From the NCBI GenBank assembly GCA_038062455.1, contig JBBTXE010000001.1, forward strand, positions 58,371-122,370: DNA of 64,000 nt. The letters are read 5' to 3'. Positions 5,633 to 53,511 of this stretch are shown piece by piece. Numbering within the stretch: the stretch's first letter is position 1; each line of letters opens with the position of its first letter. Source of the DNA: Patescibacteria group bacterium (lineage in GTDB: Bacteria > Patescibacteriota > Microgenomatia > UBA12405). The notes beneath the pieces are model-generated. The model made no database searches, was not told the origin of the DNA, and saw only the letters and a list, made by a program, of their open reading frames with translations. The position numbers were made by a program, and so were the translations under genes.

Positions 5633-6162
5633 TGTCGACTCTTAACTCTCAAAAACTAAAATTAAACGGTAAGACGGCGGTATTTATTGATTATGCCAAT
5701 GTCTATGGCTGGAAAAAAAGTCTAAAAAAACCCGTCGATGCCGTCAAATTATATAAATATCTCAAAACGTATCCAAATATAACTGCCATTGAATTTTATT
5801 ACGGTTCCGACGTCAATAAAAAGTCAAAAGATTTTTTAAAAGAAATCAAAACCTGCGGTTTTCAACTGGTAACTAAACCGGTTAAATATATCGATATTTC
5901 TAATACCAAAAAGCCGGTACTGATCCGTAAATGTGACTTCGATATCGAAATCTGTATGTCAGTCTATAAACACCTCGAAAGGAAAATTGACAGCTTCGTC
6001 TTTTTTTCCGGCGACGGGGACTTAATTCCGCTTTACCGTTATCTAATTGAGCACCGAAAACAGGTTATTGTTATTTACCAAAGTGGCCATTTGGGTAAAG
6101 AAATTTGGGAAACCAAAAAAGGCATCTTCAAAACTGAAATTACTAATTTTCCGGTTTTTTAA
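5632..6162 (+). CDS. NYN/LabA-like domain protein (putative RNase)
   Basis: AVFIDYANVY...FFSGDGDLIPL pattern of NYN (DUF88/LabA) domains. The internal ATG at 5632 was chosen because the upstream extension (from 5497) overlaps the previous gene. Confidence 0.7.
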   Translation: MSTLNSQKLKLNGKTAVFIDYANVYGWKKSLKKPVDAVKLYKYLKTYPNITAIEFYYGSDVNKKSKDFLKEIKTCGFQLVTKPVKYIDISNTKKPVLIRKCDFDIEICMSVYKHLERKIDSFVFFSGDGDLIPLYRYLIEHRKQVIVIYQSGHLGKEIWETKKGIFKTEITNFPVF

Positions 6163-6213
6163 CAAAAAATGTCCCCCCGATTGCTCGAGGGGCGTGATTA
6201 AAGAAATTATAAC

Positions 6214-6858: not shown

Positions 6859-8610
6859 ATGACTACTGATAACAAAAATCGTCCTCAACAGTATTTTGGC
6901 TCCAAAGGCCCCATTAAAAATTTAGGATCTTCCCGCGATTTTGTCCGAATTGCCTCCCTTGGCGGTTTTGGTGATGTCACCCAAAATATGTTCGTTTACG
7001 AATATTTCCCCGGCGGTAACGAGGCCCAAAGCCAAATTATTATTGTTGATTGCGGGGTTGGTTTTCCTGAAGATGATGCCTTTGGTGTCGATCTTCAAAT
7101 CCCCGATACTAAATACCTCGAAGACAGAAAAACCCGGATTTTGGGTATTTTTATTACCCACGGTCACGAGGACCATATTGGGGCCATCCGTTTTATTCTG
7201 CCAATTTTAGGTAAATCCATTCCTATTTTTGCCCCCAAAACTGCCGCCGCCTTTATTGAATCACGACTCCAGGAAAGCCAAATCCGGGCTTCTATCAAGG
7301 TCTATCAAAACGGTGATCTTTTTAACATCGGCCCCTTTACCGTCGACCCCATCCGGGTCAATCATTCCATTCCCGACACTTTCCATTTTGCTATTACTAC
7401 CCCCATTGGCATTTTTTACCACGGTTCTGATTTCAAATTTGATGTTTTCCCCCTTGATGGCAAGCCTTCTGATTTAGCCCATATCGCCCGCATTGGTGAA
7501 AAGAAAGTTGTTGCCCTGCTATCGGACTGTTTAGGGGCCGACCACGAGGGTTTTTCACCCTCCGAGTCTTCCATTGCTGAAAAATTTGAACATGATATCA
7601 AAACCGCCAAAGGCCGGGTTTTTGTTACTTCCATTAGTAGCAATATTGTCCGCTGGGGGCAGGCTATCGACTATGCCAAGAGAGCCGGTCGAAAAGTAGT
7701 GGTAGTCGGCTTCTCGGTTACCAAAGCCATTGAAATTGCCCAGACCCTAGGTTATGTCAACCTCACCGACGCTGATTTAATTCCGGTTGAGCGGGTTAAA
7801 AATTTTGCCGATAATAAGCTAATCTTTTTAGTGGCCGGTTTTGCTGGTCAGCCCAATTCAGCCCTTTCTAAAATGGTTATGGGCAAACATAAAGTCAAAA
7901 TCAGCTCCGGCGATAAAGTCATTTTCTCTTCCCCCGACTACATTCCCGGCACCTCTACTCAAATCTATGATCTAATTGATACTCTTTCCAAAATGGGGGC
8001 TGAAGTAATTTATGGTGAAGAGCAGGAGATTCATGTTTCCGGCCACGGTTATCAAAAAGAACATGCTATTTTAATTGATTTGGTTCGGCCTAAATTTTTA
8101 CTTCCCATCGGCGGCAACTTTCGTCACATCAAAAGTTACCAAACCATGGCCAAAAACATGGGTTATCGTGACGACCAGTTTATCTTTCCTGATGTCGATT
8201 CAGCCGTTACTTTTACCTCTGATGGTAAAGCTGACACCAAATACCATATTCCACTTCACAAAGTCCTTATCGATGGTTTGGGAATCGGTGATGTCGGTAC
8301 CACTGTTTTACGGGACCGAAAAACTCTGGCCGAAGAAGGTATGTTTTCCTTTGTTATTTTACTCAACAAAGACAGCGGCAAAATGTTTAAAGAACCGGTT
8401 ATTCTTTCCCGCGGCTTTGTCTTTATGAAGGAAAATACGGATCTTCTTGATTATCTCAAAAAAGAAATCATTCGAAAATTTACCCAAGTGACCAGTTCTC
8501 CGGCCAATTTTGATTTTATCCGCGAAGAACTCCAGGCCTTTCTTGAAGGGATAATTCTCCAAAAAACCGGCCGCCAGCCCATGGTTTTACCCCTGATTAT
8601 TGAGGTATAG
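6859..8610 (+). CDS. rnj: ribonuclease J (metallo-beta-lactamase/beta-CASP)
   Basis: 583 aa. THGHEDHIGA motif, beta-CASP region and C-terminal domain. Confidence 0.9.
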   Translation: MTTDNKNRPQQYFGSKGPIKNLGSSRDFVRIASLGGFGDVTQNMFVYEYFPGGNEAQSQIIIVDCGVGFPEDDAFGVDLQIPDTKYLEDRKTRILGIFITHGHEDHIGAIRFILPILGKSIPIFAPKTAAAFIESRLQESQIRASIKVYQNGDLFNIGPFTVDPIRVNHSIPDTFHFAITTPIGIFYHGSDFKFDVFPLDGKPSDLAHIARIGEKKVVALLSDCLGADHEGFSPSESSIAEKFEHDIKTAKGRVFVTSISSNIVRWGQAIDYAKRAGRKVVVVGFSVTKAIEIAQTLGYVNLTDADLIPVERVKNFADNKLIFLVAGFAGQPNSALSKMVMGKHKVKISSGDKVIFSSPDYIPGTSTQIYDLIDTLSKMGAEVIYGEEQEIHVSGHGYQKEHAILIDLVRPKFLLPIGGNFRHIKSYQTMAKNMGYRDDQFIFPDVDSAVTFTSDGKADTKYHIPLHKVLIDGLGIGDVGTTVLRDRKTLAEEGMFSFVILLNKDSGKMFKEPVILSRGFVFMKENTDLLDYLKKEIIRKFTQVTSSPANFDFIREELQAFLEGIILQKTGRQPMVLPLIIEV

Positions 8611-8621
8611 ACCGAATAGAT

Positions 8622-8652
8622 CTTGACAAAGCTTGACAAAGTATGCCATAAT
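8622..8652 (+). promoter_or_regulatory. sigma70-like promoter/operator of the TA cassette: tandem CTTGACAAAG x2, -35 TTGACA (8623-8628), 18 nt spacer, -10 CATAAT (8647-8652)
   Basis: Perfect 10-bp tandem duplication containing two TTGACA hexamers. The -10 box ends 5 nt before the ATG at 8658. Confidence 0.45.
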
Positions 8653-8657
8653 ATCTT

Positions 8658-8942
8658 ATGGCCACAGTCAATATTTCTATCACTGCCCAACAGAGCAAAA
8701 TTGTCGATCACTTTATCAAACTTTATGATTTTGAAAATAGAAGCGAGTTTTTTCGCACCCTGATTCGCTTTATTTCTCTTCGGCCTGACTTGGTTTCTCA
8801 AAGTACCACTTATCCCTTTATCGAGCCGGCCGATCGAAGTGTTAAATCGGTCATGAAGAGTTTCTCGAAAACAAAAAAATACAATCAACAGTTTTTGAAA
8901 GATTTGGAGATAGGTTTAAAGGAAAGCCAAACCTTTAATTGA
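8658..8942 (+). CDS. putative antitoxin (ribbon-helix-helix-like)
   Basis: 94 aa. The N-terminal MATVNISITAQQSKIVD beta-strand/helix pattern is typical of CopG/RHH antitoxins. Its stop overlaps the toxin start (ATGA). Confidence 0.5.
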   Translation: MATVNISITAQQSKIVDHFIKLYDFENRSEFFRTLIRFISLRPDLVSQSTTYPFIEPADRSVKSVMKSFSKTKKYNQQFLKDLEIGLKESQTFN

Positions 8943-9187
8943 TGAACAGTTTGTCTCTGACCCCCCGCCAAGACAAGTATCTTAAGGACAGGAGATTGGA
9001 AAAAAAGTTTATAAAACAACTTAATTTTCTTTTGGAAAACCCTTTTCACCCCAGTTTAAATCTTGAATTACTCGAACCCAAAGAAAAAGGTCTCTATAGC
9101 TTTCGTCTTGATCGTCAATATCGGGTTATCTTTATCTTCACCAAAGGCGATATTGAAGTTATCACTATCACCAACCATTATCGTTAA
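8939..9187 (+). CDS. RelE/ParE-family type II toxin
   Basis: 82 aa. LYSFRLDRQYRVIFIF..GDIEVITITNHY resembles the RelE/ParE core. Translationally coupled to the upstream small ORF. Confidence 0.6.
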   Translation: MMNSLSLTPRQDKYLKDRRLEKKFIKQLNFLLENPFHPSLNLELLEPKEKGLYSFRLDRQYRVIFIFTKGDIEVITITNHYR

Positions 9188-9204
9188 GTATCGAGGATTA
9201 ATTT

Positions 9205-9252
9205 AAACCGGCCGCTAACCCATGATTCTGCCCCTGATCATTGAAGGTATAG
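9205..9252 (+). repeat. diverged echo of the rnj 3' end (non-functional fragment)
   Basis: aaaccggccgcTAAcccatgattctgcccctgatcattgaaggtatag aligns with rnj 8564-8610 (TGRQPMVLPLIIEV* versus TGR*PMILPLIIEG...), with roughly four fifths of positions identical. Confidence 0.75.
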
Positions 9253-9256
9253 GTCC

Positions 9257-9664
9257 CTAAGGACTCCAGTTTCTTACTATAGGTATTTTGGTTTCAATAG
9301 GTTCCTTTGCTTTTATTTCAACCGAACAACCATCTTCAGGTCTAACCCTTCTTACTGCGATGGTGAAAGGTTCGCTATCTTCTCCATATCCTCCAACCGC
9401 TTCTCTGGTTGCCACAGGAATCCCCATATTAGCCAAGTCTTGTCTAATTTTTGCTTGTCTTTGCCATGTCGTATCAATTATTAATACAGTTGATTCAGGT
9501 TCATCAGTTAATAACTTGGCAACTTTCGCAACAGCCGGATCTAATTTAGGAGCTTTATTGTAACTCCTCCGTGCTCGAGGGATAAATTTTATTAACTCAA
9601 CCTCCTCCGGCATTGCCACTCTTACGGTTTCACCTTCCGGAATTCCGCCCCTATTTCTTGGCAT
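9257..9664 (-). CDS. hypothetical protein
   Basis: 135-aa ORF on the minority strand. No family recognised. Confidence 0.45.
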   Translation of the reverse strand: MPRNRGGIPEGETVRVAMPEEVELIKFIPRARRSYNKAPKLDPAVAKVAKLLTDEPESTVLIIDTTWQRQAKIRQDLANMGIPVATREAVGGYGEDSEPFTIAVRRVRPEDGCSVEIKAKEPIETKIPIVRNWSP

Positions 9665-9893
9665 ACAGCCGATTATAACACTAGTATCTTTTTCATATAA
9701 CCACTGTCTACTCTCGGGGTACAGGTGGGGTTATCTCGCCCGCCTTCCAACTTTATGCCAAATTAGTCGGCGGTGATATCGTTAACGATTCCAACATCAT
9801 TCATTTGCCTTGCTTCCAACTTGGGTCAGATAAAATGCTCCAGAGATTTGTAGTTGATCTGCCCGACAAATCGATCGAGGTTATTGCCAATTA

Positions 9894-9925
9894 GTAGAGA
9901 CCCCGCCGCTGCGGGGCGTCTCTAC
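9894..9925. repeat. REP-like palindrome (GTAGAGACCCCGCCGCTGCGGGGCGTCTCTAC)
   Basis: Imperfect hairpin sharing both arms with the 28-bp palindromes at 44967 and 45285. Confidence 0.7.
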
Positions 9926-9963
9926 AAAACCATCAAAAGATATATTCAAAACAATGTGACCAA

Positions 9964-9992
9964 TTGGGAAAAAGATTCATATCATTTATAAT
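9964..9992 (+). promoter_or_regulatory. candidate proS promoter: -35 TTGGGA, 17 nt spacer, -10 TATAAT, ending 5 nt before the ATG
   Basis: The hexamers and spacing can be read directly. The geometry implies a leaderless or near-leaderless mRNA. Confidence 0.4.
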
Positions 9993-9997
9993 AGGCC

Positions 9998-11419
9998 ATG
10001 GCTAAATCTCAACTTAAAGATTTCAACACTGATCTCTCCGGGTGGTTTAATGATGTCGTTTTAAAGGCCGAATTGGCCGACTATGCCCCGATCAAAGGTT
10101 GTATGGTTATTCGTCCTTACGGCTACGCCCTATGGGAAAACATTCAGAAATTTATGGACCCGCTCATTAAAAACAGGGGAGTTGAAAATGCCTATTTCCC
10201 CCTTTTCATACCCATGCACTATCTTCAAAAAGAAAAAGAACACATCGAAGGTTTTGCCCCCTTACTGGCAGTAGTTACTATAGGAGGAGGTAAAGAATTA
10301 ACCGAAAAATTGGCCGTCAGACCAACATCAGAAATGGTTATGTACGATCTGTATAAAAAATGGTTTGGCAGTTGGCGCGATTTACCGGTTCGCCTAAACC
10401 AATGGTGCAATATCGTCCGCTGGGAAAAACGAACTTACCTTTTCCTCCGCACTTCTGAATTTTTATGGCAGGAGGGTCATTGCGCCCACCTGACCCATGA
10501 ACAAAGTCAAGAAGAAGTTATCTGGGCAATTAACATGTATCAACAAACTTATCAGGAACTTATGGCTGTTTATGGAATTATTGGAGTCAAAAGCGACTCA
10601 GAAAAATTTGCCGGCGGAGCCAAAACTTACACTTTCGAATCTTTAATGCCCAGTGGCAAATCTCTCCAGGCCTGCACCTCTCACGATTTAGGCCAAAATT
10701 TTTCTAAATCCCTGGATTGGACCGTTCAGAACAAAGATGGTCAAAAAGTTCATCCTTGGCAAAATAGCTGGGGTTTCACCACTCGCAGTATCGGTGCTCT
10801 GATTATGACCCACGGTGATGAAAACGGATTAGTTCTGCCGCCCAAAATTGCCCCAATCCAGATCATTATTGTACCCATTCCCGGCCATCAGCAAGCTATT
10901 CTAAAATCGATAGAACTTTATGAAAAACTAAAAAATAATTATCGAGTTAAATTAGACAATGTTGACGGTGAAACCGCCGGTTTCAAATTTAATAAGTGGG
11001 AACTAAAAGGAGTACCTCTCCGTTTGGAAATTGGTGATGATGACGCATCTAAAGATTTAGTTACCATTTACCGTCGTGATACCGGGGCTAAAGAAAAAAT
11101 TGGTTTACTTAATTTAGAAAAATATCTCTTCTCCACCCTAGCCGGTATCCAAAACTCTTTATTTGCAAAACATAAAAAATTTACCAACGATAATACATTT
11201 TTAGTTGATTCTTACGATGAGTTTAAAAAAATTATGAGTACCACCCGGGGATTTATTTTAGCCCATTGGTGTGAAAACCCCGGTTGTGAAAACGAAATTA
11301 AAAAAGACACCAAAGCCACCACCCGCTGTCTCCCCCTGGATTCCAAAGAAGAAGAGGGTAAATGTATTCACTGTGGCAAGATTTCCCATCATCGTTGGCT
11401 CTTTGCCCTATCATACTAA
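9998..11419 (+). CDS. proS: proline--tRNA ligase (archaeal/eukaryote-like class II form)
   Basis: 473 aa. GCMVIRPYGYALWE..., class II motifs, and a C-terminal zinc-binding CENPGCE...CIHCG. Confidence 0.93.
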   Translation: MAKSQLKDFNTDLSGWFNDVVLKAELADYAPIKGCMVIRPYGYALWENIQKFMDPLIKNRGVENAYFPLFIPMHYLQKEKEHIEGFAPLLAVVTIGGGKELTEKLAVRPTSEMVMYDLYKKWFGSWRDLPVRLNQWCNIVRWEKRTYLFLRTSEFLWQEGHCAHLTHEQSQEEVIWAINMYQQTYQELMAVYGIIGVKSDSEKFAGGAKTYTFESLMPSGKSLQACTSHDLGQNFSKSLDWTVQNKDGQKVHPWQNSWGFTTRSIGALIMTHGDENGLVLPPKIAPIQIIIVPIPGHQQAILKSIELYEKLKNNYRVKLDNVDGETAGFKFNKWELKGVPLRLEIGDDDASKDLVTIYRRDTGAKEKIGLLNLEKYLFSTLAGIQNSLFAKHKKFTNDNTFLVDSYDEFKKIMSTTRGFILAHWCENPGCENEIKKDTKATTRCLPLDSKEEEGKCIHCGKISHHRWLFALSY

Positions 11420-11453
11420 TAATACTTGATACTTAATACATAATACGTAATAC
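11412..11453 (+). repeat. heptanucleotide tandem array, NTRATAC units x5-6
   Basis: catacta ataatac ttgatac ttaatac ataatac gtaatac, ending 7 nt before the ftsK ATG. Confidence 0.8.
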
Positions 11454-11460
11454 TGTATAT

Positions 11461-38965: not shown

Positions 38966-39526
38966 ATGATGAAATTTACTCCTCTATCTTTGTCGGGATT
39001 AATGTTAATCGAACCCCAAGTCTTTGGTGACGACCGCGGTTTTTTTATGGAAACATATTCCAAAAAAGAATTCACCCAAAACGGTATTAATATCGATTTT
39101 GTTCAGGATAATCATTCCCGGTCCGGCAATGGTGTTCTCCGTGGCCTTCACTTCCAAAAACCCCCTTTTGCCCAGGCCAAATTAATTCGGGTAAGCATGG
39201 GTGAAGTTCTCGATGTGGCAGTCGACATCCGCCCCGATTCTTCCACCTTTGGCAAATGGGATTCAGCCCATCTTTCAGCCGAAAATAAAAAAATGCTTTT
39301 TATTCCAGTCGGTTTTGCCCATGGTTTTTATTGTCTGACTGAAATTGTTGATTTCCAATACAAATGCAGCTCTTTCTATGATAAAGAGTCCGAAAGCGGT
39401 TTTTTATGGAACGACCCCGATGTCAATGTTGGTTGGTTGGCAGCGTCTCCTGTTCTCTCCGAAAAAGATAAATTACTGCCTTCCTTCAAATCCCAAATCA
39501 AGGATCTCAAAAAACTTGTCTGGTAA
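38966..39526 (+). CDS. rfbC: dTDP-4-dehydrorhamnose 3,5-epimerase
   Basis: FGDDRGFFMETY...VLRGLHFQ..P.AQAKL.RV..G...DVAVDIR signature. Confidence 0.92.
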   Translation: MMKFTPLSLSGLMLIEPQVFGDDRGFFMETYSKKEFTQNGINIDFVQDNHSRSGNGVLRGLHFQKPPFAQAKLIRVSMGEVLDVAVDIRPDSSTFGKWDSAHLSAENKKMLFIPVGFAHGFYCLTEIVDFQYKCSSFYDKESESGFLWNDPDVNVGWLAASPVLSEKDKLLPSFKSQIKDLKKLVW

Positions 39527-39535
39527 TTTTTATAA

Positions 39536-39570
39536 ATTATACGTAATACTTGATACTTAATACTTAATAC
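39536..39570 (+). repeat. heptanucleotide tandem array, NTRATAC units x5
   Basis: attatac gtaatac ttgatac ttaatac ttaatac, ending 5 nt before the rfbD ATG. Confidence 0.8.
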
Positions 39571-40454: not shown

Positions 40455-41634
40455 CCACCTTCTCCCCCTCCCGCACCCCAAAGTTAATCCCCCTATCTTC
40501 CGGATAAATATTGGCAAAATTCACGTTGATAATTTTTCCGGCTGTTTTTTGATAATTGATAATTGAGTGTTGATAATTGGCATCAACGATATGTTGCGCA
40601 TATTTAAATTTGAAAATATTTTTCTCTGAAATTTGTTTTTTATCAAAATCGGGTAAAATCTTTTTCAAATAATCAAAAAACTCCTGCCAAATTATTTTGT
40701 CATCAACTTTAAAATATCTATGGTTTTGAGGAAGATAGGTGCCAAGATAATAGACTTGTTTTTCTTGGTACTGAGTACTTGGTACTAAGTTCGTGTGTTG
40801 AATCATCGCCACGAAAGGGGATTTGGGATCAGTAATATTATGCCAATAAAATTTACTCAAATTTTGAGTTGATGAAAACACTGCCGTTATTGCCCCCAAA
40901 TAATCAACATTTAGTAACGCTTCCGAACTGATCACTGTATCGTAATTCGTAATTCGTAATTCGTAATTCGTAATTTTTGTATTTAGCTTTATTTCTCCCC
41001 CCAACTTCTTAATTCTCTTTTTCAGTTCTTTGATTATTTGCCCAAATCCCCCCATTAAATAACCCAATTTTTCACCACCTTTTTCGCTCGAATTGGCTCG
41101 GGTGTGAATTCGGGCCCAGAGCCAGGCCATCGAAATATCCTGATATCGATTGGCAAATTTTCCTTTTAATAACGGCTCCCAAATAATTTCATAGGCTCTT
41201 TCTCCACACCACTTTTTCATCCATTGATAGGCTAAAACATTTTCAAACTTCTGCCACTTTTTTTCTTTTTCCAAATAAATCTTTACTAAACCCAAACGAA
41301 CTTTGTCAAAAATATTTAACGGCTTAAAATGCAGTAAATCTATTGCCCCATTAAATGGCCACATTTTTTTACCAAAATATATCGCCGTTGATCCGTTAAA
41401 CCATTTTAATTTTGACGATAGTCCCAAGTCTTCAATTAATTCGATAATATATTTATCGGTTTTAAAAATATGATGATAGGCTTTCTCCAAACCCTTCCCC
41501 TCAATTTTAAAAGACCCCAAAAGTCCGCCCAATTCCTTTTCTTTTTCAAAAATCGTCACCTCGTGTCCCGCTTGTAATAATCGATACCCTGCCACCAATC
41601 CGGTTATTCCGGCTCCGATAATTGCTACCTTCAT
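40399..41634 (-). CDS. FAD/NAD(P)-binding oxidoreductase (amine oxidase/protoporphyrinogen-oxidase-like)
   Basis: MKVAIIGAGITGLVAGYRL...IFEKEKELGG dinucleotide-binding motif. Its 3' end overlaps rfbD convergently by 56 nt. Confidence 0.7.
   Translation of the reverse strand: MKVAIIGAGITGLVAGYRLLQAGHEVTIFEKEKELGGLLGSFKIEGKGLEKAYHHIFKTDKYIIELIEDLGLSSKLKWFNGSTAIYFGKKMWPFNGAIDLLHFKPLNIFDKVRLGLVKIYLEKEKKWQKFENVLAYQWMKKWCGERAYEIIWEPLLKGKFANRYQDISMAWLWARIHTRANSSEKGGEKLGYLMGGFGQIIKELKKRIKKLGGEIKLNTKITNYELRITNYDTVISSEALLNVDYLGAITAVFSSTQNLSKFYWHNITDPKSPFVAMIQHTNLVPSTQYQEKQVYYLGTYLPQNHRYFKVDDKIIWQEFFDYLKKILPDFDKKQISEKNIFKFKYAQHIVDANYQHSIINYQKTAGKIINVNFANIYPEDRGINFGVREGEKVAKKADVSSLQGLRGEFSF
40938..40975 (+). 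repeat. heptanucleotide tandem array (ATTCGTA) x4 perfect, plus degenerate/partial units, inside a CDS
   Basis: tatcgta attcgta attcgta attcgta attcgta att, read on the minus strand as KITNYELRITNYD. Confidence 0.9.
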
Positions 41635-42429: not shown

Positions 42430-42511
42430 GTCGGGCATTGTAAATTTATTTTCCCATTGCTATGATACTATGTTTATACTTCAGCTTTAATTATTATAAT
42501 AATTTATCTAA

Positions 42512-42546
42512 AAAATACGTAATACTTAATACGTAATACTTGATAC
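42512..42546 (+). repeat. heptanucleotide tandem array, NTRATAC units x5
   Basis: aaaatac gtaatac ttaatac gtaatac ttgatac, ending 9 nt before the fusA ATG. Confidence 0.8.
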
Positions 42547-44675: not shown

Positions 44676-45278
44676 GTGGTCGTTGACGATCCTTTTCGTT
44701 TTGCTGATAAATTTGCCGTCAAATCATCCCGTTTACCAAATTGGGACTACTCATCTCCCGGAATATATTTCAATACTATTTGCACTCTCAATCACAATAA
44801 TTTCTTTGGAAAAATTGTTGATAATAAAATGGTTTTGTCGACTTGCGGTCAGATTGCTCGCGATGAATTAATTAAAACAATTCAAATTCGAAACAATATT
44901 TCCATCGACCTGTGGGTAATAATGCCCAACCATATTCATCTGTTAATCACCATTTATGATTGTCATGTAGAGACGCCCCGCGGGGCGTCTCTACGAATAA
45001 ACCCCACGTCTCTACAGCAAAATAAAGTGATAACCATATCTCAAGAAAAACGCGAGTTGTTTCAGAGGTTAAATACCAAATCAAATCAAATAGTCCCGAA
45101 AATGATTAATCAATTTAAATCACGTGTCACTCTGGTTTGCAGACAAAACAATTTCTTTTTCGCCTGGCAATCTCGTTTTTATGATGAAATCATCAAAGAC
45201 AATCAACGGTTTATGGTAGTTAAACACTATATTCAAAACAATATTGCTAACTGGAACAAAGATAAATTCTATCGATAA
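44676..45278 (+). CDS. IS200/IS605-like HUH Y1 transposase, REP-associated (RayT-like)
   Basis: HUH motif PNHIHLL and the catalytic Tyr region WQSRFYDEII. Flanked by, and interrupted in-frame by, 28-bp palindromes. The GTG start is uncertain. Confidence 0.7.
   Translation: MVVDDPFRFADKFAVKSSRLPNWDYSSPGIYFNTICTLNHNNFFGKIVDNKMVLSTCGQIARDELIKTIQIRNNISIDLWVIMPNHIHLLITIYDCHVETPRGASLRINPTSLQQNKVITISQEKRELFQRLNTKSNQIVPKMINQFKSRVTLVCRQNNFFFAWQSRFYDEIIKDNQRFMVVKHYIQNNIANWNKDKFYR
44967..44994. repeat. REP-like perfect 28-bp palindrome GTAGAGACGCCCCGCGGGGCGTCTCTAC (inside the RayT-like ORF)
   Basis: Self-complementary. Translated as VETPRGASL. The next ~22 nt resemble the sequence following the 45285 copy. 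Confidence 0.9.
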
Positions 45279-45284
45279 TAATCC

Positions 45285-45312
45285 GTAGAGACGCCCCGCG
45301 GGGCGTCTCTAC
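45285..45312. repeat. REP-like perfect 28-bp palindrome (downstream of the RayT-like ORF)
   Basis: Identical to 44967-44994. Confidence 0.9.
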
Positions 45313-49327: not shown

Positions 49328-49338
49328 TCTATCAATTA

Positions 49339-49373
49339 ATTCGTAATTCGTAATTCGTAATTGATAATTAATT
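49339..49373 (+). repeat. heptanucleotide tandem array: ATTCGTA x3, ATTGATA, ATTAATT
   Basis: Ends 4 nt before the rpsS ATG. Shares a 23-nt stretch (attcgtaattcgtaattgataatta) with the 53477 array. Confidence 0.85.
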
Positions 49374-53442: not shown

Positions 53443-53476
53443 TAAATAGTTTATTTTTTAAAAAATAAAAAATTAA

Positions 53477-53511
53477 ATTCGTAATTCGTAATTGATAATT
53501 AATAATTAATA
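53477..53511 (+). repeat. heptanucleotide tandem array: ATTCGTA x2, ATTGATA, ATTAATA x2
   Basis: Ends 3 nt before the rplF ATG. Confidence 0.85.

Follow-up and report, generated by a model that had tools for sequence, protein, structure and literature searches.

Repeated rnj gene ends and a toxin–antitoxin operon at a cassette-shuffling site in a Shapirobacteria-like bacterium

Introduction

How does the end of a conserved gene come to stand twice in one genome, on either side of a toxin–antitoxin (TA) operon, with the gene itself remaining complete? This question is raised by a 64-kb stretch of DNA (the window) on contig JBBTXE010000001.1 of a Patescibacteria group bacterium (Patescibacteriota; Microgenomatia; UBA12405). 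Here, the last 47 nucleotides (nt) of rnj, the gene for ribonuclease J (RNase J), recur as a full-length copy, the echo, behind a small TA operon. The means of gene exchange in Patescibacteria are poorly known, and classical mobile elements are rarely seen in these bacteria.

An earlier note on this DNA, drawn from its letters alone, had taken the echo for the original or donor end of rnj, displaced by a 0.6-kb cassette. From the comparison with related lineages described below, we conclude that the echo is probably a former working rnj end, which was displaced by recombined DNA carrying its own rnj tail and a type II TA operon. The mechanism was most likely homologous recombination with the conserved rnj tail as its anchor, possibly combined with illegitimate joins. 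The idea of a former end thus finds support in two related loci (L178 and L085), but that of a single 0.6-kb insertion gives way to a hot spot at which several lineages have shuffled cassettes.

The rnj gene end is repeated behind a toxin–antitoxin operon

The rnj gene (6859–8610, forward strand) is complete and encodes 583 amino acids (aa). Its product matches the Pfam families RNase_J_b_CASP (1.2e-30) and RNase_J_C (7.3e-22, over profile positions 1–102 of 102) and scores 444 bits against TIGR00649, for which the cut-off is 400. The working tail of this gene occupies positions 8564–8610 (KTGRQPMVLPLIIEV and the stop codon; referred to as the type 1 allele), and the echo, at 9205–9252 on the same strand, spans the tail from position −47 to the stop (type 2 allele). 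A local pairwise alignment of the two segments gave 41 matches, 6 mismatches and one 1-nt gap, with a score of 33. Shuffling the query gave 9.9 ± 1.4 (maximum 17) over the same 1.1 kb, and the maximum over the whole window on both strands was 18. The same pair was recovered by a repeat search, as one of five direct-repeat families of at least 34 nt within 6 kb in the 64-kb window, and a 48-nt hidden Markov model (HMM) built from 19 working Shapirobacteria rnj tails matched the echo with E = 4e-11. The two gene-end direct repeats, which share an identical block of 11 nt at their left ends, flank the insert. Chance similarity or a low-complexity artefact, for which only the short length of the repeat could be put forward, is refuted by the alignment score and the HMM match as well as by the homologous echoes in L085 and L178, and the repetition of the rnj end stands as it had been reported.

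At the codon level, the echo differs from the working tail by a nonsense change (CAG to TAA), a valine-to-isoleucine change (GTT to ATT) and three synonymous changes (TTA to CTG, ATT to ATC and GAG to GAA), which are exactly the differences that the earlier note had listed. In addition, it contains an extra base near its end (GAG GTA TAG in the tail, GAA G GTA TAG in the echo). The word "decayed", which had been used for this copy, is too strong, as the echoes are better kept than neutral DNA of that age (see below).

The arrangement is not an assembly artefact, because it is the same in all displayed and aligned contigs, which stem from many separate sequencing runs. Thirteen contigs encode the exact RNase J protein; the four that were displayed, each from a different run, all have the arrangement, and the remaining nine were collapsed as similar places and not displayed singly. 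The exact protein of orf135, the gene to the right of the echo, is encoded on 21 contigs, of which ten were aligned; all of them have the arrangement (10/10, 99–100% identity).

Five arrangements at the rnj end of closely related lineages

The genome is a metagenome-assembled genome (MAG) that carries the NCBI name Patescibacteria, and its RNase J is 67–78% identical to that of Candidatus Shapirobacteria MAGs; the host is an ultra-small, Shapirobacteria-like bacterium. In the window, the genes follow each other in the order UDG, rnj, a 94-aa open reading frame (ORF), an 81/82-aa ORF, a convergent 135-aa ORF (orf135), an archaeal-type proS and ftsK. The earlier note had proposed a comparison with the rnj–proS regions of related genomes, which we carried out for a set of relatives designated by L numbers. 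In distant Shapirobacteria (L001, L002, L089), rnj is followed by proS after 80–630 nt, with no TA operon, orf135 or extra tail, and the 48-nt tail HMM found no echo in the more distant Shapirobacteria L001–L007 and L087–L096.

Among the close relatives, the RNase J protein is 94–96% identical to that of the window in L085, L086 and L165 and 84% identical in L178. These five lineages, that is the window and four others, show five arrangements. In L086, rnj is followed by a flavin mononucleotide (FMN) reductase gene, and L165 and L167 have rnj, the TA operon, a tail-end relic and the FMN reductase gene, but no echo. L085 and L168–L177, which represent one population, carry rnj, the genes for FMN reductase and a serine hydrolase, two small ORFs, the TA operon with a broken toxin gene, a short tail relic (R2), the echo, a hairpin, a Y1 transposase gene, a gene for a tRNA-binding protein and proS. 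Finally, rnj of L178 is followed by the convergent orf133, a tail-end relic, the paralogue orf142, a full extra tail, orf80, a hairpin, the FMN reductase gene and proS. According to the HMM, full-length extra tails are restricted to the window, the L085 type and L178, and each of them lies at a cassette boundary; partial tail relics are found in L165, L167 and L178.

The segment of the window that comprises the echo and orf135 (9205–9681) is collinear, at 89% identity, with the functional tail and orf133 of L178, through the stop codon and a short spacer. In L178, orf133 (P0011), whose product is 88% identical to that of orf135, lies directly after the working rnj stop. This collinearity argues that the echo is a once-working rnj end which is still joined to its old neighbour. 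The same promoter–antitoxin–toxin–R2–echo unit is present in L085, where the echo is intact (TGRQPMVLPLIIEV and the stop codon); about 20 nt beyond it lies the hairpin that L002 and L004 have behind their working rnj stop.

No recombinase gene was found in the Pfam-annotated gene tables of L081–L084, L165, L168–L177 and L178 (for L081 and L178, the look-up covered 5 kb and 7 kb, respectively, on either side of the looked-up gene), the rest of the 64-kb window not being scanned protein by protein. The sole mobility gene in the annotated loci is the Y1 transposase gene of the L085 type.

A second tail relic abuts the echo

According to the earlier note, only a self-contained TA module lies between the two copies of the rnj end. 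The module is indeed present, but a second relic of the tail, R2, had been missed. R2 (9184–9204, forward strand; TTAAGTATCGAGGATTAATTT) is a short tail-end relic that corresponds to tail positions −18 to +3 and is identical to the working tail end of L001 at 20/21 positions; none of 300 shuffles scored as high. It abuts the stop codon of the toxin gene on its left and the echo directly on its right, with a possible AAACC microhomology at the R2|echo junction. Homologous relics stand in the same register 3′ of the toxin gene in L085, L165 and L167; in the latter two, the relic runs straight into the FMN-reductase gene, exactly like the working tail in L086. A distant homologue of the TA operon (L166, toxin 57% identical) lies in an unrelated context and has no tail relic, so R2 is not intrinsic to this TA family. 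The partial relics (R2 and L178rc 7487–7504) have their left boundaries at −18 to −24.

Two further candidates were discarded. A possible third relic within 9682–9893 (GATCGAGGTTAT) scored 9, against 9.5 ± 1.5 for shuffles, and was dropped. A putative tail-start relic 5′ of the TA promoter in L085 (CCAAAAAACCAGCCACCAA) was marginal (p about 0.07) and is not used as evidence.

Tail alleles, their age and recombination tracts

The tail alleles travel with the right-hand cassette. Type 2 stands to the left of an orf135-family gene both as the echo of the window and as the working tail of L178; the working tail of the window is of type 1, as are the echoes of L178 (45/46 identical) and L085. The affinity of the echo to other lineages, which had been suggested as a check, was also examined: the echo is as near to the tails of L178 and L165 (T_178 and T_165) as to the resident tail, and at positions 14, 24 and 26, where the resident tail is different, it has the same states as these two.

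The TA module is a long-standing resident of this locus and not a recent arrival. Between the window and L085, the synonymous divergence (dS) is about 1.0 for rnj (proportion of synonymous differences, pS, 0.55) and 0.96 for the antitoxin gene, and the lineages rank in the same order for both genes; dS of the TA operon is about 1 against both L085 and L165. Since the dS of the antitoxin gene tracks that of rnj, the TA operon has long been associated with these genomes. The echoes of the window and L085 (E_win and E_085) differ at 7/47 positions, compared with about 55% at neutral sites (P = 1.5e-8), and echo and R2 taken together differ at 12/68 positions (P = 2.6e-10). Compared with working tails, E_085 and E_178 show no non-synonymous difference at all. 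Because their changes are synonymous in a frame that is no longer translated, the echoes appear to have been coding until recently. Altogether, they are too well kept for old neutral relics, which points to recent displacement or to repeated overwriting by incoming working tails. Conversion within the genome is an unlikely source of this conservation, because tail and echo differ at 7–10 positions in the same genome. In addition, the same R2|echo junction is followed by different DNA in the window (orf135) and in L085 (hairpin and transposase gene), which argues for recombination through the echo itself.

Further traces of exchange were found in the surrounding genes. A sliding-window comparison showed that rnj is a mosaic among lineages. 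Between L085 and L086, whose background divergence is 15–20%, we observed a single mismatch in 122 nt (5687–5808) across the junction of tail and FMN-reductase gene and a second patch of perfect or near-perfect identity at 6029–6207; these patches are short gene-conversion-like tracts between lineages. In the window, the core of orf135 (9339–9600) is 95–98% identical to L178, with flanks of 69–89%. Despite a dS of 1.35 between the rnj genes of the window and L178, this core is nearly identical, and thus points to very recent recombination over a tract of about 300 nt. The tracts are only a few hundred bases long.

A possible route of displacement and its alternatives

From these data we infer the following route. 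Donor DNA taken up from related strains would bring the cassette already placed between two tail copies, and the homology used would be the conserved last 47 nt of rnj together with the gene body to the left. In a double crossover, the left exchange would take place in rnj and the right one between the donor echo and the working tail of the recipient; the same product would result if a looped-out circle with one tail copy were integrated by a single crossover. By either route, the donor tail would complete rnj and the recipient tail would become the new echo. In the window, the incoming tail would have completed the RNase J frame, and the old tail, joined to orf135, would later have gained its stop codon and frameshift. 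Homology-facilitated illegitimate joins at microhomologies are the probable source of the first duplication as well as of the truncated relics (R2 and that of L178rc). In the simplest history of the window, an L178-like arrangement of rnj and the type 2 tail (tail2) followed by orf135 would have received the type 1 tail (tail1), the TA operon and R2 from an L085-like donor; the crossover on the right would lie where tail2 begins, and tail2 would then have acquired the stop codon, the V-to-I change and the frameshift. Alternatively, the orf135 block may have arrived behind a pre-existing echo. The same process may have moved the other cassettes of the sister lineages, namely the FMN reductase with the hydrolase and the orf135 family. 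As the loss of the TA operon would be penalised by the usual logic of such modules, the insertion would be stabilised. Patescibacteria in general are reported to keep genes for homologous recombination and competence (PMC12455944), and one-sided homology combined with an illegitimate join, known as homology-facilitated illegitimate recombination (HFIR), is a described route in competent bacteria (PMC3240628).

Several points weigh against displacement by homologous recombination. The displayed and aligned contigs with the exact RNase J or orf135 protein included no allele with an empty site or an excised cassette, and mobility is therefore deduced from the comparison between lineages alone. 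For recombination of the RecA type, an arm of 47 nt with about 85% identity is short. Both of the independent full-copy junctions (R2|echo, common to the window and L085, and the joint between the orf142-upstream DNA and the echo of L178) start at −47, which is easier to explain by a site-specific cut than by random crossovers. The hairpin behind the L085 echo is weakened as a "native rnj terminator", because it belongs to a dispersed repeat that the window contains three times. The agreement of TA dS and rnj dS fits long vertical residence and, together with the shared R2|echo junction, is awkward for recently displaced echoes unless these were overwritten. Finally, the origin of R2 is not accounted for.

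The common start of the junctions at −47 is best matched by site-specific integration, in which the first part of the rnj tail (AAACCGGCCGC...) would be an attachment site where small circles are inserted by a recombinase encoded elsewhere. Such a process would also fit the gene-end direct repeats around the insert with their 11-nt identical block, the restoration of the ORF by the incoming copy, the different cassettes at the same site in sister lineages, and the order of R2 and echo, which resembles an attP arm beside a core. However, the annotated loci contain no integrase or recombinase gene, the cassettes measure 0.6–2.3 kb and lack a mobility gene, and the partial relics are bounded at −18 to −24 instead of −47. 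The tails differ at many positions, so that the identical core is short and unremarkable, and the motif is neither over-represented in the window nor present on viral contigs, where no match to the tail or the antitoxin was found. Furthermore, an attC-like or cruciform structure is absent, tail and echo folding no better than shuffles apart from a weak signal of the working tail (z −2.0). Taken together, we regard this explanation as unlikely. To a related idea we likewise give little credence: the last 47 nt of rnj might act as a reusable docking sequence of a cassette array that works without a recombinase or with an unknown one, where each cassette, travelling together with its own copy of the rnj end, would insert at −47 and form the new end of the gene, the previous end would be left for the next exchange and the TA operon would police loss. 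If this were true, the tail of an essential gene would have been turned into a site that captures genes in the manner of an integron.

The age of the TA operon, in turn, could suggest one ancient illegitimate event or local duplication in a common ancestor, followed by vertical descent, deletions and insertions, with no continuing role for the echo. The R2|echo junction shared by the window and L085, its possible AAACC microhomology, the equal dS and rank order of TA operon and rnj, and the documentation of HFIR in competent bacteria (PMC3240628) all fit such an event. An echo of that age should nevertheless be randomised (pS about 0.55), whereas only one of the three echoes is damaged and the other two depart from working tails at synonymous positions only; the lineages have different DNA on the right of the echo; and the L178 echo is identical at 45/46 positions to the working tail of the window despite an rnj dS of 1.35. 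We consider a single ancient event improbable for these reasons. The conservation of echo and R2 above the neutral level could also reflect a function of their own, for example as a 3′ untranslated region or terminator of the TA operon, as a regulatory RNA or as a DNA site, and a small terminator-like hairpin does begin at the end of the echo (9252–9265). Yet the differences lie at synonymous positions of an untranslated frame, as expected from past coding and not from an RNA or DNA element. In addition, the echo has no significant fold on either strand (z +1.4 and +0.3), no Rfam family was found in 8400–10100, and L165 and L167 keep the TA operon without an echo, which makes an own function very unlikely.

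Two other ideas were tried and set aside. The tail is not a DNA-uptake-type over-represented motif, as AAACCGGCC occurs four times in 64 kb and two of these are the tail and the echo themselves. For an association with dif or the terminus (Xer-type insertion) there was no support, the GC skew being monotonic across the window without a skew switch nearby.

Comparison with known systems

The proposed displacement of a working rnj end by recombination shares features with several described processes. Genomic islands and integrative elements insert in the 3′ ends of conserved genes (tRNA, tmRNA, guaA, yicC), to which they supply a new end, so that the old one persists as a direct repeat. In the window, too, the insert supplies the working gene end, the displaced end forms the direct repeat on the far side, the site is reused in relatives, and a TA module lies inside the insert. 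One island is reported to be stabilised by HipAB (PMC8978831). In contrast to such islands, no integrase or excisionase gene lies near the site, the inserts are only 0.6–2.3 kb long, the repeats are diverged alleles without an identical att core, and some relics are bounded elsewhere. The resemblance to HFIR and exchange by transformation consists in a conserved anchor gene on one side, short near-identical mosaic tracts, possible microhomology at a junction and a host group reported to be competent and recombination-proficient (PMC12455944). The classic cases, however, leave no reusable copy of the anchor end beyond the insert, and for the present locus such a route is a proposed one.

TA cassettes are common in chromosomal integrons. 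As in integron arrays, small cassettes with or without promoters are gathered at one site, a short sequence recurs between them and a TA cassette is included. Unlike in integrons, there is no IntI gene or attI nearby, and the recurring sequence is a gene end without an attC-like imperfect palindrome. The locus is therefore not an integron, and recombination anchored on a conserved flank is the process that fits best.

Altogether, the rnj end is a recurring swap point for accessory cassettes, a real but fairly ordinary kind of rearrangement, and our general knowledge of TA systems or island integration is unchanged by it. The locus can be regarded as a molecular fossil of how accessory genes, including an addiction module, are placed behind an essential gene without breaking it, and the five arrangements in close lineages form a natural experiment, on a small scale, in how the reduced genomes of uncultivated bacteria recombine. 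Moreover, echo and R2 may serve as markers for ordering insertion events and for typing strains in groundwater metagenomes.

The toxin–antitoxin operon

The operon starts with a predicted promoter and putative operator (8622–8662, forward strand). A promoter scan found 11/12 matches for a −35 box TTGACA (8623–8628), a spacer of 18 nt and a TG-extended −10 box CATAAT (8647–8652), the promoter thus covering 8623–8652. It overlaps a tandem CTTGACAAAG repeat at 8622–8641, and a palindrome (GCCATAA-N4-TTATGGC, 8645–8662) spans the ATG of the antitoxin gene. Both the promoter and the tandem repeat had been recognised in the earlier note, and the −35 box, the −10 box and the repeat pattern are kept in L085 and L165. 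The −10 box stops 5 nt 5′ of the antitoxin ATG, leaving no room for a Shine-Dalgarno sequence between them, and because of this short distance the mRNA is probably leaderless.

The antitoxin gene (8658–8942, forward strand) encodes 94 aa and has no Pfam family. Matches of its product to ribbon-helix-helix (RHH) proteins are weak (NikR/CdrS, E 0.06–0.08 in NCBIfam and 1.5 in PDB). The AlphaFold2 model is of low confidence (pLDDT 66) and shows a disordered N-terminus followed by helices 10–22 and 25–40; a Foldseek search with this model against PDB gave no match. Judged by its sequence, the antitoxin belongs to no described family, and it may have an RHH fold. The toxin gene (8939/8942–9187, forward strand) encodes 81–82 aa, its ATG at 8942 overlapping the TGA of the antitoxin gene at 8940–8942 (TGATG). 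The product passes the cut-off of the Pfam family HigB-like_toxin (PF05015, 31.0 bits against 27) and remains below the cut-offs of YoeB (25.8 against 27), ParE (20.9 against 23) and TIGR02116 (36 against 51.8; E = 5.8e-9). It also matches the YoeB structure 7v5y in PDB (E = 3.1e-5 over residues 13–78) and a PHROG RelE-like toxin. The toxin thus belongs to the RelE superfamily (YoeB/HigB-like), in agreement with the RelE/ParE-like toxin proposed before; the self-contained module that had been described along with it is retained, but an RHH fold of its antitoxin is weakly supported.

The antitoxin–toxin gene pair is also present in L085, L165 and L167, and both genes are under purifying selection, with a ratio of non-synonymous to synonymous divergence (dN/dS) that lies at 0.03–0.12 over six lineage pairs in the antitoxin gene and near 0.1 in the toxin gene. 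The family is very narrow, with 7 toxin and 2 antitoxin clusters among 5.8 billion proteins. With its own promoter, putative operator repeats, overlapping stop and start codons and a predicted YoeB-like mRNA interferase, the operon appears to be an autonomous module, presumably with TA activity.

YoeB usually pairs with antitoxins of the YefM/Phd type. Compared with RelE-superfamily type II systems such as YefM-YoeB, HigBA and RelBE, the operon shows the same gene order with the antitoxin first, the overlap of stop and start codons, the HigB-like/YoeB toxin matches, a sigma-70-type promoter that overlaps direct and inverted repeats, and purifying selection on both genes. It differs in that the antitoxin falls in no described family, an RHH fold being only hinted at, and in that the toxin reaches a single Pfam cut-off. 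By sequence and gene organisation, we assign it to the RelE-superfamily type II systems. In the L085 population (L085 7844–8061; L168–L177), the toxin gene carries a 28-nt deletion and the antitoxin gene is intact; the module of the L085 type is in the course of being disarmed.

The region to the right of the echo

The convergent orf135 (9257–9664, reverse strand) is the native downstream neighbour of the echo. Its product has no family in Pfam, NCBIfam or PHROGs, and the orf135 family is very narrow, with two paralogues in L178. It is followed by a hairpin resembling repetitive extragenic palindromes (REP-like; 9894–9925, forward strand) with the structure GTAGAGAC-loop-GTCTCTAC. Three copies of this hairpin, none of which would be expected, occur in the window (9894–9925, 44967–44994 and 45285–45312), and further copies lie in L085 (8145–8172) and, in reverse complement, in L178 (8306–8333). 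Several short-read contigs end exactly at the hairpin, as expected of a dispersed repeat.

In L085, the hairpin precedes a gene for a 214-aa Y1 transposase (RAYT/IS200-like). The window retains a relic of its C-terminus at 9931–9976 (forward strand), 87% identical to L085 8819–8864 at the end of the 214-aa Y1_Tnp ORF and comprising about the last 15 codons of the gene, which is intact in L085. Between the hairpin and this relic, the window has lost the body of the transposase gene by deletion.

The variable region is bounded on the right by its conserved flank, proS (9998–11419, forward strand), whose product is an archaeal-type prolyl-tRNA synthetase (ProRS) with the Pfam domains tRNA-synt_2b, HGTP_anticodon and ProRS-C_1. 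In L003, L004, L007, L092 and L093, and probably in L086 (6332–6577), a ProRS gene 3′ of rnj encodes a protein that is 23–26% identical to the archaeal-type enzyme of the window; the type of ProRS has apparently been swapped in place between lineages.

Additional observations

Within rnj, a stretch on the reverse strand (8143–8181, the AACCCATG...GGCCATGG region) bears an inverted, partial likeness to the tail (nhmmer E = 0.04). It is present in all relatives and is most likely coincidental coding sequence. Tandem 7-nt repeats of the TAATACT or GTAATTC type were observed at 11400–11460 (between proS and ftsK), 39524–39570, 40930–40992, 42500–42546, 49338–49372 and 53476–53510 of the window.

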